Shown here piece by piece: positions 2,049 to 7,796 of a stretch of DNA of 13,326 bases. The stretch's first letter is position 1. Each line of letters begins with the position of its first letter. The position numbers and the translations under genes were made by a program. The notes beneath the pieces are model-generated. The model ran no database searches. It was not told the origin of the DNA and saw only the letters and a program-made list of their open reading frames with translations. Source of the DNA: a virus. Lineage: Duplodnaviria > Heunggongvirae > Uroviricota > Caudoviricetes. The stretch is taken from IMG/VR virus record IMGVR_UViG_2690316062_000002. One strand, 5' to 3'.

Positions 2049-2382
2049 GAAAAATCCCCCAGAGAATTGTCTGGGGACATTTTAGAATGGTTCAAAGGGG
2101 ACATTACAGCTTGGTGTTAACAATAGCCTGCTTCTCCTTGCCTTTCGGCACGTAAGAGGCTAACCTACATGTGTCTGGCATGAAATTGGCCTCAGATTAA
2201 TGTTAAGCGTCTTGCAGGACGCGTAATGTTAACTGGGGCTTTTCTCTACCTGCCGTTGGTGTTCGTGCCCGAGGCAGATAGCCTCAAGCACCCGCAGTCA
2301 TTCTACTTAACTAAGATTTCCCCGCAAACCGTTTTTGTCCAGCACAGTAAATATCCAACTAAACCAATGGAGTTCGCTGTAT

Positions 2383-2562
2383 TTACCGCCAGTATTCAAT
2401 GCACATGACCGCCATGAACACCCCTAAAAAAAGGGCATTTATATATCCAAATATTAATATCAAAACATCAACTTTTTCCATATACCTTGCTGTGAAGATG
2501 ATGGGCATACATGATGCGAACAACCAGAACGCAACAAACAAAAACTGCAATGCGTTTTTCAT
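2383..2562 (-). CDS. hypothetical small membrane protein, 59 aa, two predicted transmembrane helices
   Basis: ATG at 2562-2560 preceded by a perfect AGGAGG (2572-2567) with 4-nt spacer; translation MKNALQFLFVAFWLFASCMPIIFTARYMEKVDVLILIFGYINALFLGVFMAVMCIEYWR has two hydrophobic segments; sits in an AT-rich stretch. No family recognised. Confidence 0.35.
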   Translation of the reverse strand: MKNALQFLFVAFWLFASCMPIIFTARYMEKVDVLILIFGYINALFLGVFMAVMCIEYWR

Positions 2563-2816
2563 TATTCCTCCTACAATCAATGTGCAATTACATTTAAACA
2601 CACCTCAATTTGGCCGGACATATAAATATCTAAACCAGAAAAAATCACTTACATAGCGTTACAAACTCTTTAGTCTAAAGGTTCATCGTAAAACATTCCC
2701 CATACTTATCAGTCCGTTCCGCGCCAGGTAGCTCATTGCCTTATCTGGCAACCTGTAATCAGGTTTCCGCTTTTTCAGTTGGCTGGTCGTTTAACCGACA
2801 TAGTTAACCCATTAAT

Positions 2817-3104
2817 CTAGTTGCCGGATGTTGGTGGATTTTCGCGTTTTAGTTGTTCATAAAAGTGCACAGCTTTAACCAATTCTTCTGATGTAACCGG
2901 GACTGGTGAGGCAGTGAATAAGGCCTGAATTTGATAGTTCGGCCTGTCGTTACAATCCTCTTTTTTCGGTACATATTTCCAGTCACCAGACCACTACTTC
3001 CCCTGAAAGTCCGTAACGCCTTTTTTCACGTAGCGATATCGCCATGTCACTGGTTTTGCTTGCCCCGCCGTTTCATGCCCTTCCTGATAATTAATCTCGC
3101 TCAT
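2817..3104 (-). pseudogene. small phage-type ORF interrupted by an in-frame amber codon (TAG at 2996-2994); 36 codons before and 58 open codons after
   Basis: ATG at 3104-3102; MSEINYQEGHETAGQAKPVTWRYRYVKKGVTDFQGK, then TAG, then WSGDWKYVPKKEDCNDRPNYQIQALFTASPVPVTSEELVKAVHFYEQLKRENPPTSGN with no internal start; final stop TAG at 2819-2817. Confidence 0.3.
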
Positions 3105-3292
3105 TCATCGCCCCACTCATCACAATATGCTTCGACCGGAGTTTTTCCCGCTTCATAGTCATCACGCTAGGATTCGACATCAGCAGCACTTCCACCGCGT
3201 AACTCACCATAGTCCATTAATAGTTCATCCCGCTCTTCAAAACTGATGTTATATTTAGCTGAACAAAAATCAGCCACTTTGTTCTTCCTCAT
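3101..3292 (-). pseudogene. small ORF interrupted by an in-frame amber codon (TAG at 3169-3167); the read-through frame ends in a TGA that overlaps the ATG of the next ORF
   Basis: ATG at 3292-3290 (weak RBS); 41 codons, TAG, then 21 open codons RDDYEAGKTPVEAYCDEWGDE ending in TGA at 3103-3101, which forms an ATGA junction with the ATG at 3104. Confidence 0.2.
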
Positions 3293-3341
3293 CGTCTTTT
3301 ATTTCGTGGTATGAGTAATTGCAGTAGTTAAAGAAAATTTC

Positions 3342-3452
3342 TTATGCTCCGTCATGAATTTCATCAGGTGTTGCGTCATCGTCCACTTCGAATACATCCT
3401 CAAAATCTCCACCAGCTATTCCCGTTTCAATAATAATTTTGAACTTTCGCAT
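3342..3452 (-). CDS. hypothetical 36-aa acidic peptide
   Basis: ATG at 3452-3450, stop TAA at 3344-3342; translation MRKFKIIIETGIAGGDFEDVFEVDDDATPDEIHDGA; GGAGG lies 23 nt upstream, separated from the ATG by a GAAA-loop hairpin. Weak support. Confidence 0.15.
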   Translation of the reverse strand: MRKFKIIIETGIAGGDFEDVFEVDDDATPDEIHDGA

Positions 3453-3459
3453 TTCACTA

Positions 3460-3475
3460 CCGCCCTTTCGGGCGG
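3460..3475 (-). other. perfect 6-bp hairpin with GAAA (GNRA) tetraloop on the minus-strand transcript
   Basis: Minus strand reads GGAGG-CCGCCC-GAAA-GGGCGG-UAGUGAA-AUG; no U-tract follows, so it is not a canonical terminator. Confidence 0.4.
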
Positions 3476-3530
3476 CCTCCTGATGTTCTGAGGGTGCAGA
3501 AATCCATCCGGTTAAGGATTAAGTTTTATT

Positions 3531-3570
3531 TACAGAACTGAATTTAATTATTCAGATATACGTATCTGTA
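3531..3570. promoter_or_regulatory. cluster of nested inverted repeats, candidate operator/promoter region
   Basis: TACAGA (3531-3536)/TCTGTA (3565-3570); CTGAAT (3538-3543)/ATTCAG (3550-3555); CAGATA (3553-3558)/TATCTG (3563-3568). Confidence 0.3.
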
Positions 3571-3646
3571 ACCTTACGAATCTACTCACTGGATGCCTCT
3601 TTCATAAAAATAGTCCAGTGGGTTTTATCGTTTTTTCCCTGTTCGT

Positions 3647-3674
3647 TGACAGATAACAGGCTTTCTATCTGTCA
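3647..3674. repeat. 9-bp inverted repeat TGACAGATA / TATCTGTCA with 10-bp spacer
   Basis: Perfect 9-bp arms at 3647-3655 and 3666-3674; shares the CAGATA/TATCTG half-site with the palindrome at 3553-3568. Confidence 0.4.
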
Positions 3675-3714
3675 GTGCCAGAATCTGGCTTACCGGTATT
3701 TGCGTTTCATTCCA

Positions 3715-4071
3715 TTAAAAAATCAGAACGCCGTGCGGCCTCAACACCCGAAAAGCTTCTTTAAATCTCTGTCGCAAATCATCACGCCAGGCATCTTTAT
3801 TCAGCCGTCCATATTTCTTTCCCATCCAGGCGTTATCACCAACACGCTCAAGATGCGGAGGGTCTAATACAACCATCGAAAAAGATGCGTCTGCAAATGA
3901 TAATGCACGAAAATCTGCGATAATGTCAGGGCTGATAATCAAGCGTCTCCCATTGCGTAATGTGTATCCTTCTTTTCTGATATCGCTGAATATCGCCCGT
4001 TTGTCAGACTTATCGAACCAGAACATGCGGCTGCCACAGCACATATCAAGAATGGTTGCCGGTGCACTCAC
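3715..4071 (-). CDS. SAM-dependent N-methyltransferase-like protein (118 aa), possibly truncated
   Basis: GTG start at 4071-4069 overlapping the upstream TGA (GTGA junction); glycine-loop-like ILDMCCGS near the N-terminus and VLDPPH about 58 residues later, the order seen in amino-methyltransferases; 118 aa is short for a complete fold and the frame stays open for 30 codons past the TAA. Confidence 0.55.
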   Translation of the reverse strand: MSAPATILDMCCGSRMFWFDKSDKRAIFSDIRKEGYTLRNGRRLIISPDIIADFRALSFADASFSMVVLDPPHLERVGDNAWMGKKYGRLNKDAWRDDLRQRFKEAFRVLRPHGVLIF

Positions 4072-5496: not shown

Positions 5497-5998
5497 AATT
5501 CCATCCAGCTTTTTGTTGGTATTGCTGTCGATACGCAAGCTTGAAAGCAATTGCTTTTTCTATAAGTTCGTCAGTTTCACGATCCACTACGGCAGGATCA
5601 GCAAAAAGCAGTCCGGACTCCACCACATCGCCATATTCTTTGTTTAACCCGGCGATCATGCACGTGATGCTTTTTCCGTCAGTAATTTCACGATACAACC
5701 TGAAATCACTAATCCGGATAGCCTCCATAATCGCAGGCACTAGCGCCGTGAACTTTTCACGCTTATCCCTGGTGTCGATAGCCTTCCAGCGTTCGAATAT
5801 CTTCACTCGATTAACACCAAGCGCTCGCTGATCAACCGCGCCACCTTCATCTGTGACACGCTGAACATCGATGTTCGGGCGCTCTTTCAAAGCCCAGAAT
5901 GCTTCAGTGATTAATATCGTCGCCTGCTCCTGTGTCATTCCTGGTCGACATATCCAGGCATCCAGAGCCTCACGAGCCTGTTCAGGAGTGATTTTCAT
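5477..5998 (-). CDS. YdaT-like prophage protein (173 aa) in the cII position
   Basis: ATG at 5998-5996; lies between the Cro-like gene and the replication initiator, overlapping dicC by 17 nt and the initiator by 20 nt; family assignment is from recalled similarity to Rac-type YdaT, unverified. Confidence 0.6.
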   Translation of the reverse strand: MKITPEQAREALDAWICRPGMTQEQATILITEAFWALKERPNIDVQRVTDEGGAVDQRALGVNRVKIFERWKAIDTRDKREKFTALVPAIMEAIRISDFRLYREITDGKSITCMIAGLNKEYGDVVESGLLFADPAVVDRETDELIEKAIAFKLAYRQQYQQKAGWNYEPSFC

Positions 5999-6212
5999 TG
6001 TTCAACCACCCCGCCCGCTTCGTCTTACGATATTCATCATAAACTTTGGGATCATACTGAAGCTCCCCGCCAGATGCCTCCTGTAGACGCATCGCGCGAC
6101 CTTCGGGAACTAAATCCCCTTTCCAGCTATAAAGCGAAGCCAAACGAATACCTGCTGCTTGTGCAAGTTTTGTTTTTGAACCGAAATACAAAAGAGCGTC
6201 AGTTTTAAGCAT
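5982..6212 (-). CDS. dicC: DicC, Cro-like repressor of the division-inhibition operon
   Basis: 76 aa, MLKTDALLYFGSKTKLAQAAGIR... HTH; divergent from dicA; AAAGGTG RBS 6 nt upstream; length and sequence match my recollection of K-12 DicC. Confidence 0.8.
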   Translation of the reverse strand: MLKTDALLYFGSKTKLAQAAGIRLASLYSWKGDLVPEGRAMRLQEASGGELQYDPKVYDEYRKTKRAGWLNNENHS

Positions 6213-6295
6213 TTAAAACACCTTTATTGTTAGTCATAACTAACAAGATAGATGTTAACAAAAACATAGTCAATACGATTTAGCATTAGCTAACT
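6213..6295. promoter_or_regulatory. divergent dicC/dicA promoter-operator region
   Basis: Operator palindromes TGTTAGT-CATA-ACTAACA (6228-6245) and TTAGC-ATTA-GCTAA (6280-6293); central palindrome TGTTAACA (6253-6260); leftward promoter with -35 TTGACT (6273-6268), 17-bp spacer and -10 TATCTT (6250-6245) overlapped by the first operator. Confidence 0.6.
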
Positions 6296-6703
6296 ATGGA
6301 AACAAAAAATTTAACTATCGGCGAACGCATCAGGTATCGTCGGAAAAACCTCAAACACACCCAAAGGTCTCTTGCTAAAGCCCTGAAAATCTCCCATGTG
6401 TCTGTATCACAATGGGAACGGGGTGATAGTGAACCTACAGGGAAGAACCTTTTTGCCCTCAGCAAAGTATTGCAATGCTCACCAACATGGATTCTATTTG
6501 GCGATGAAGACAAGCAACCAACACCACCTGTTGAGAAGCCAGTTGCCTTATCCCCCAAAGAACTAGAGCTCCTTGAGCTGTTTAATGCACTGCCAGAATC
6601 AGAACAGGATACCCAGCTCGCCGAAATGCGAGCTCGAGTAAAAAACTTCAATAAACTCTTTGAAGAATTACTAAAAGCCCGTCAGCGGACAAATAAAAGA
6701 TAA
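6296..6703 (+). CDS. dicA: DicA, CI/C2-like HTH repressor
   Basis: 135 aa; N-terminal XRE-type HTH (RIRYRRKNLKHTQRSLAKALKISHVSVSQWERG); position and length match my recollection of K-12 DicA. Confidence 0.85.
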   Translation: METKNLTIGERIRYRRKNLKHTQRSLAKALKISHVSVSQWERGDSEPTGKNLFALSKVLQCSPTWILFGDEDKQPTPPVEKPVALSPKELELLELFNALPESEQDTQLAEMRARVKNFNKLFEELLKARQRTNKR

Positions 6704-7184: not shown

Positions 7185-7403
7185 ATGCAGAAACGAGAAC
7201 CCGTCATCATCGCGCCAGACTATACCGATGATGAACTTTATGAGTGGATGCGCCAGAAAATTAATGCAGCGCAGGATCTGAAATGGGCCAATGAAGCCAG
7301 GGCTAAGCAGGCTGAAAATCTGTCCGCTCTGGAGCAGGATATCACCAATCTGGAAAAAGCAGCGGCATTAAGCATTGCCAGAATGATTACATACCCGCGT
7401 TAA
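7185..7403 (+). CDS. ydfC: YdfC-like small protein, 72 aa
   Basis: ATG at 7185 with GAGG 7 nt upstream; coiled-coil-like sequence; length matches recalled K-12 YdfC. Confidence 0.7.
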   Translation: MQKREPVIIAPDYTDDELYEWMRQKINAAQDLKWANEARAKQAENLSALEQDITNLEKAAALSIARMITYPR

Positions 7404-7743
7404 TAGCTAACCAACGAAGCTAAGGTTGGTAATTAAGGAGTTCTCCACGGGTGAGGTGGAGTGCGTGCGCCGGACACGGGTGAGCATCCGGCACTGACAG
7501 TTTACTGAAAGGATATTTCCCTGAAAAGTCAGACCATAACGCGAAAGCGCACGGCGAGGTAGCTGGTTCATAGATAGCCTGTCGTTAAATTTTCGTCGAC
7601 CGTGCGCTTCCGGTTGTGGCAACCCGCGAAATGGTGCGGCGGTAAGTATGGCGGGGTTATTTCTTCCCCGTTGAGGACACCGGGTTGTCAGGTTGACCAT
7701 ACGCTTAAGTGACAACCCCGCTGCAACGCCCTCTGTTATCAAT

Positions 7744-7796
7744 TTTCTGGTGACGTTTGGCGGTATCAGTTTTACTCCGTGACTGCTCTGCCGCCC
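7744..7796 (+). ncRNA. dicF: DicF small regulatory RNA (53 nt)
   Basis: TTTCTGGTGACGTTTGGCGGTATCAGTTTTACTCCGTGACTGCTCTGCCGCCC matches the DicF sequence as I recall it; lies between ydfC and dicB as in the known operon; followed by a T5 tract. Confidence 0.7.

Follow-up and report, generated by a model that had tools for sequence, protein, structure and literature searches.

A short open reading frame (ORF) on the minus strand of a Qin-type lambdoid prophage of E. coli is very probably a genuine gene that starts at an ATG codon and usually goes unannotated. The stretch of DNA that was analysed (the window, 13,326 nucleotides) is a part of this prophage. According to the explanation that we prefer, the ORF is a real gene, its product forms a hairpin in the inner membrane, the gene is the first cistron of an AT-rich moron, and the protein acts by helix-helix contacts. 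We estimate the probability of this explanation as a whole at about 0.6. The ORF founds a new orphan family, and as a kind of gene it is ordinary.

The ORF occupies positions 2383-2562 of the minus strand. It consists of 59 sense codons, from the ATG at 2562-2560 to the TAA stop at 2385-2383, and its translation is MKNALQFLFVAFWLFASCMPIIFTARYMEKVDVLILIFGYINALFLGVFMAVMCIEYWR. The Shine-Dalgarno sequence AGGAGG (2567-2572, minus strand) is separated from the ATG by the 4-nt spacer AATA. A preliminary description of this DNA called it the strongest ribosome-binding site in the window. AGGAGG occurs in the window four times on the minus strand and not at all on the plus strand, and only the copy of the ORF lies 3-10 nt before a start codon; this claim is therefore fair. 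In about half of the related copies the fourth base of the motif is changed from A to G (AGGGGG). The same description had recognised two hydrophobic helices together with the strong Shine-Dalgarno sequence, and both stand; it had left the strand unnamed, and the strand is the minus one. The location in AT-rich DNA was also described correctly, with a G+C content of 0.353 over 2401-2700 versus 0.44-0.55 in most of the window.

The neighbourhood was likewise confirmed as lying between an insertion sequence (IS) and decayed small genes. On the low-coordinate side of the ORF there is an ISEsa1-family IS fragment (about 977-2122). On the high-coordinate side there are frameshifted small genes (pseudogenes), followed by the replication genes and dicC. 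All of these high-coordinate genes have the orientation of the ORF, and so does the antiterminator gene ydfT. The region 2200-2800 (601 nt searched) is 100% identical to E. coli IAI1 and to several further strains. The antisense sRNA DicF, which is expected in a Qin prophage, was found on the plus strand at 7745-7796 (Rfam RF00039, 76.7 bits).

The length of the ORF is not significant against chance: when the 647-nt module was randomised by dinucleotide shuffling, the longest ATG ORF reached at least 59 codons in 42% of cases. The GRAVY value of the product is 1.27; random ORFs of equal composition give 0.59 ± 0.41, and 4.6% of them reach 1.27. Thymine is concentrated at the second codon position (52%, versus 38% at the first and 23% at the third). 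What is beyond chance is the pairing of the Shine-Dalgarno sequence with the ATG, taken together with a reading frame that is conserved in a homologue of 41% identity.

This homologue was obtained when 1.84 billion representative proteins were searched exhaustively with phmmer. Beyond close relatives, the search gave one distant relative, P0037, a protein of 59 amino acids that aligns without gaps over residues 1-59 of both sequences (41% identity, E 1.2e-8). P0037 is a member of a sister clade, B (E. coli 83972, HMPREF0358_2809); the ORF in the window belongs to clade A. The nucleotide sequences of the two clades are 59% identical, and over the 180 nt there is no indel, and the start and stop codons are aligned. 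The values of pN and pS between the clades are 0.35 and 0.70. Alignment of the approximately 170 nt upstream of the ORF with clade B needs 8 indels, and about 25 nt past the stop codon are conserved in clade B. The six-frame check demonstrated that only the frame of the ORF is open in both clades. When random substitutions were introduced to an equal divergence (30,000 trials), the frame stayed open in 2.6% of cases, and the ATG and the stop codon were also kept in 0.13%. None of the open simulated frames had the observed 25 identical residues (mean 17.2, maximum 24). Homologues lacking a conserved reading frame had been named in advance as grounds for rejecting the ORF; the 41%-identical homologue keeps the frame, the start and the stop, and so the comparison fails to refute it. 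The Shine-Dalgarno sequence itself is not conserved in clade B, where GGGA is found 7 nt before the ATG.

Two other readings of the locus were rejected. In some GenBank records the clade A ORF is labelled as a hypothetical or "membrane" protein, often from a GTG start that gives 72 amino acids. The extension to the GTG is not open in clade B, and a suitably spaced Shine-Dalgarno sequence is missing. On the opposite strand there is an 85-codon ORF (2399-2656, plus strand), known from the annotation of phage records, which we judge to be spurious. It contains 5 stop codons in clade B and has no family match in Pfam, NCBIfam or PHROGs. Three phage GenBank records annotate this strand ("hornerin" or hypothetical protein, 83-85 amino acids, located in two of the loci, L002 and L003, at 5907-6158 of the minus strand), which looks like a mis-annotation.

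Relatives of clade A (more than 90% identity) were found in 1567 of the 5426 complete E. coli genomes (about 29%), in Shigella and in three phage records. Clade B is present in 1045 of the 5426 genomes (about 19%), with one copy per genome. No RefSeq annotation covers the locus in any of the 65 genomes listed, that is, in 40 of 40 for clade A and 25 of 25 for clade B. In strain JJ1886 the clade B ORF lies between ttcA and uspF (NC_022648, about 1588698-1588877; 7230-7409 of our locus L090), and a second clade B locus carries it at 829-1008 (L087). In the prophage remnant of JJ1886 it is the sole intact frame; the integrase, the DUF1627 gene, hok and the metal-ABC permease are fragmentary or frameshifted. 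For further relatives, a word-indexed search with the single sequence and with a profile of clades A and B, and searches of GTDB genomes and metagenome contigs, gave only these two clades. The tblastn search of phage and plasmid records likewise gave nothing outside them, and the plasmid matches look like chromosomal fragments. Both clades are confined to E. coli and Shigella. Since the family consists of two clades only, the comparative case rests on a single deep comparison.

No family match to the product was obtained in scans of Pfam, NCBIfam, PHROGs and PADLOC at E values up to 1-10, and the holin families of Pfam and PHROGs did not match either. This agrees with the earlier impression that the protein is not Hok, Ldr, a holin or another named small toxin. 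The PDB sequence search gave no match to the product. Peptide strings of the product were found in no paper in the literature. A Ribo-seq preprint on strain CFT073 (bioRxiv 10.64898/2026.09.28.754932) describes small membrane ORFs; one of them, SMP7, maps to the microcin/sfa island.

The sequence, the homologue and the AlphaFold model all lead to the prediction of a two-helix hairpin in the inner membrane. Using an alignment of both clades, AlphaFold placed helices at residues 2-24 and 30-58 with a mean pLDDT of 71. In such a 59-residue hairpin, the first transmembrane segment (TM1) would span residues 4-25 approximately, and the second (TM2) residues 33-55 approximately. The loop RYMEKVD between them contains acidic and basic residues. 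The residues that are invariant between the clades include W13, S17-C18, P20-I21-I22, T24, F38-G39, N42-A43-L44, G47, I55-E56 and W58-R59. In TM2 the pattern G39-x-x-N42-A43-x-x-x-G47 is thus kept as a face of small residues with an asparagine. Both ends of the protein are probably cytoplasmic (N-in, C-in), as suggested by the positive-inside rule. The charges that bear on this are K2 or R2-K3 at the N-terminus and R59 at the C-terminus, and the loop is acidic in clade B. When the AlphaFold model was compared with viral structures using Foldseek, only generic helical hairpins were found, all at E > 0.9.

The ORF travels as a part of a small unit. There are 29 loci that share with the window only the stretch 2769-2123, and this places the left mosaic border at about 2769 and the other border at the IS junction. 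Homology to hokW of VT2-Sakai starts at position 6230 of the phage locus L003, which corresponds to window position 2333. Thus, the unit of the ORF extends roughly from 2334 to 2769. In composition and mosaic structure it is like a moron, with sharp borders, presence or absence among related phages, and a G+C content of 0.35 versus 0.44-0.55. In the explanation that we propose, a small AT-rich moron is placed between the replication genes and Q in Qin/Rac-type lambdoid prophages, and the ORF would be its first cistron. The ORF lies on the strand of the early-right operon, and the protein would be made when this operon is transcribed.

The upstream stretch that accompanies the ORF as its leader or regulatory region (2563-2769, minus strand) was delimited from the border of the shared loci and from the alignment with clade B. 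It contains a 13-nt palindrome, CTTTAG-N-CTAAAG, at 2668-2680, about 110 nt upstream of the ATG. In clade B the palindrome reads CTTCAG-T-CTGAAG, so that a paired change on both sides preserves the symmetry. The palindrome is unique in the window and lies inside a 43-nt block without a single SNP among 27 haplotypes. It could serve as an operator. Promoter scans found no sigma-70 consensus promoter for the ORF.

Directly downstream of the ORF there is a known toxin-antitoxin cassette. The leader of hok/sok (2122-2293, minus strand, with a mok-like start at 2181) was identified by Rfam RF01794 with 99.8 bits versus a gathering score of 59, over model positions 1-157. It starts about 90 nt downstream of the ORF on the same strand. 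The ISEsa1-family IS interrupts hok within its ATG (junction 2122/2123), and the coding region of hok is lost. The preliminary description had regarded the surroundings of the ORF as the usual setting of morons or small toxins. The moron-like character holds; the toxin-like setting is explained by this truncated hok/sok neighbour, which had gone unseen, and not by the ORF.

We found no terminator in the spacer between the ORF and hok/sok (2334-2382, minus strand). In the phage vB_EcoS-640R1 (L003), the ORF (6001-6180) is followed by mok/hok (6383-6595) and a terminator (6664-6681), with none in between, and the hok terminator is the sole terminator of the intact module. As no terminator separates them, the ORF and hok/sok probably share that of hok. 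The order of the ORF and then hok/sok was observed in all 80 IMG/VR loci that were retrieved with the protein; in about half of them hok/sok is intact, and in about half it is cut by the IS. Three IMG/VR loci retain the distal part of hok beyond the IS. In clade B, a 3' fragment of hok is found downstream (81% identity over 62 nt), and about 270 bp, comprising sok and the 5' portion of hok, have been deleted. The reverse association does not hold. Of the 110 phage records with a hok/sok of the same type, only 3 contain the ORF, so the pairing of the two is not obligatory. At the hokW locus of VT2-Sakai and at that of phage Tritos, no analogous membrane ORF lies upstream, and the paper on hokW-sokW is silent on neighbouring genes.

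In the predicted hairpin, barely ten residues would remain outside the bilayer, and the protein would act by association of helices within the membrane. We infer action through helix-helix contacts because so little protrudes from the bilayer and because TM2 presents the G39-A43-G47/N42 face. Our leading guess, a tentative one, is that self-association of the hairpin would perturb the permeability or the energisation of the membrane, as a second membrane hit beside Hok. In size and hydrophobicity, two known kinds of membrane protein besides Hok resemble the product. GhoT and OrtT are 57-amino-acid two-helix membrane toxins of E. coli; they are similar in size, have two predicted transmembrane helices and scarcely any soluble part. 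The product differs from them in having no Pfam or NCBIfam match, and there is no ghoS-like neighbour. The pinholin S21 and class II holins are, like the predicted product, phage-encoded hairpins of two transmembrane segments. The N-in, C-in topology of class II holins is, for the product, suggested by the distribution of its charges. A glycine-zipper face has been reported for TMD2 of the pinholin, and the G39-A43-G47 face recalls it. In contrast to class II holins, the product has no charged C-terminal tail (EYWR only), and its gene has a single ATG without a dual-start motif. The lysis cassette essD-ydfR-rrrQ-rzpQ is more than 8 kb away from the ORF, beyond the antiterminator gene.

Nearly as likely as self-association, and also to be taken as tentative, is that the product may bind an inner-membrane protein of the host, in the manner of exclusion or lysogenic conversion. 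As an alternative to our explanation, such a protective or regulatory role is possible: the ORF would be a real gene whose hairpin binds a host inner-membrane protein, for example a sensor or a transporter through which phage DNA enters. Precedents are small membrane regulators and superinfection-exclusion proteins. This role is consistent with clade B, where the ORF alone is intact in a decayed remnant after the deletion of hok; a toxin without regulation should have disappeared together with hok. The scans revealed nothing that resembles an antitoxin, and the composition and borders are moron-like. In common with the morons that encode small membrane proteins for exclusion or lysogenic conversion, the ORF is rich in AT, is inserted among conserved early genes and has mosaic borders of its own. 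Consensus scans found no promoter of its own, and its product has no homology to described exclusion proteins. Moreover, PADLOC and the other family searches gave no match, no partner protein is indicated, and clade B copies differ by only about 1%, so that the intactness of the ORF in this clade could be due to chance.

We also considered whether the gene is under selection at present. The ORF is intact in 112 of 116 copies of a sample anchored on the upstream DNA and unbroken in 266 of 268 full-length copies. Among the segregating sites of clade A (268 copies, 13 alleles) 11 are non-synonymous and 1 is synonymous; in clade B there are 3 and 0. This pattern within the clades fits near-neutral recent evolution and not an omega of about 0.2. 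Since recent polymorphism is almost wholly non-synonymous, present-day constraint appears to be weak. With 9 sites in 180 nt, the ORF has about half the SNP density of its flanks (9 in 85 nt upstream and at least 5 in 60 nt downstream). The near absence of synonymous variation next to more polymorphic flanks may be due to weak constraint, to limited sampling or to some constraint on the nucleotide sequence itself. At the sites of the common variants A16V, V31I, I37M, Y40H and M53T, the two clades differ from each other as well, and the variants at clade-invariant positions are singletons.

Truncated versions of the ORF occur in individual strains with several different junctions, which indicates that its loss is tolerated. 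The truncated proteins P0038 and P0080, from clades A and B, share the ending GDAANLLI directly before the stop codon. This ending looks like a translation of the terminal repeat of IS1, which suggests independent IS1 insertions into this AT-rich gene in both clades. A frameshifted copy of the ORF next to an intact hok ORF was found in E. coli ECMA0423 (CP178302, locus L086), a GTDB species representative. In comparison with other loci, this one contains many scattered indels of 1-3 nt at 2700-3800. They look like assembly errors rather than true divergence, and we left this copy out of the evidence.

These data bear on a second alternative, in which the ORF is a former gene that functioned in ancestral phages and now drifts under relaxed selection in cryptic prophages. 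Neutral evolution could account for the 14 non-synonymous and 1 synonymous sites within the clades (P about 0.17, binomial estimate). The neighbours of the ORF in the window are pseudogenes, hok is cut by the IS, the truncations have several junctions, and the Shine-Dalgarno sequence varies between AGGAGG and AGGGGG. However, the SNP density is reduced to about half of that in the flanks, the common variants avoid clade-invariant positions, 97-99% of the copies are intact, and the ORF is also found in three phage records. We consider drift of a former gene unlikely.

If we return to the preferred explanation of a membrane-active hairpin, a closer partnership with Hok can be imagined. In it, the product of the ORF and Hok would form a two-peptide membrane module, expressed from a 5'-extended hok mRNA. 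Cleavage directed by Sok and the 3' fold-back of hok would also govern the stability of the ORF message. A pinholin-like permeabilising hairpin of a new family would then work with Hok or modulate it during prophage induction or abortive infection. We regard such a module as quite unlikely.

The preliminary description had suspected a small toxin with an antisense RNA, that is, an unrecognised type I pair. The ORF is small, encodes a hydrophobic product, lies in AT-rich prophage DNA and adjoins a known type I system. Like the product, members of the Hok/Gef family are small inner-membrane peptides of high hydrophobicity from E. coli prophages. They have a single N-terminal transmembrane helix and a periplasmic tail with a conserved Cys. 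Hok thus combines one helix with a periplasmic C-terminal domain, whereas the product of the ORF has two helices and almost no tail outside the membrane. A product with two helices would be unusual among type I toxins. The Hok/Gef profile (PF01848) did not match the product in the Pfam search at E up to 1. We found no overlapping mok-like frame, sok-like RNA or fold-back elements of the Hok type for the ORF. On the antisense strand near the ORF, neither clade has a consensus promoter or a conserved terminator, in consensus scans that by their nature cannot exclude one. No Rfam RNA covers the ORF, the fold of the leader RNA is unremarkable (z = -1.5), and reading of the leader and ORF sequence revealed no anti-Shine-Dalgarno element of the CCTCC type. 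On the plus strand, an RNA antisense to the leader could terminate at a weak terminator-like hairpin (2750-2765), but this hairpin coincides with the mosaic border and is not intact in vB_EcoS-640R1. With no antisense signals, no RNA family and an unremarkable leader fold, a type I toxin is improbable, even more so than the two-peptide module.

Least probable of all is a chance ORF on a T-rich strand or a true gene on the opposite strand: the length is not significant, T-rich strands yield hydrophobic translations (4.6% of random ones reach the same GRAVY value), RefSeq shows no feature in the 40 clade A genomes listed and three phage records annotate the other strand, but frame, length, start and stop kept at 41% identity are very unlikely to arise by chance, the opposite-strand ORF has its 5 stops in clade B, the enrichment in T is specific to the second codon position, and the sole AGGAGG of the window that is correctly spaced from a start codon belongs to this ORF.

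The ORF illustrates how genes for small membrane proteins are missed in annotation. It is a conserved candidate for the little-understood accessory functions of cryptic prophages, located beside a classic toxin-antitoxin system. If its product is membrane-active or interacts with Hok, it would be a new component in the biology of hok/sok; otherwise, it would be another orphan prophage gene.
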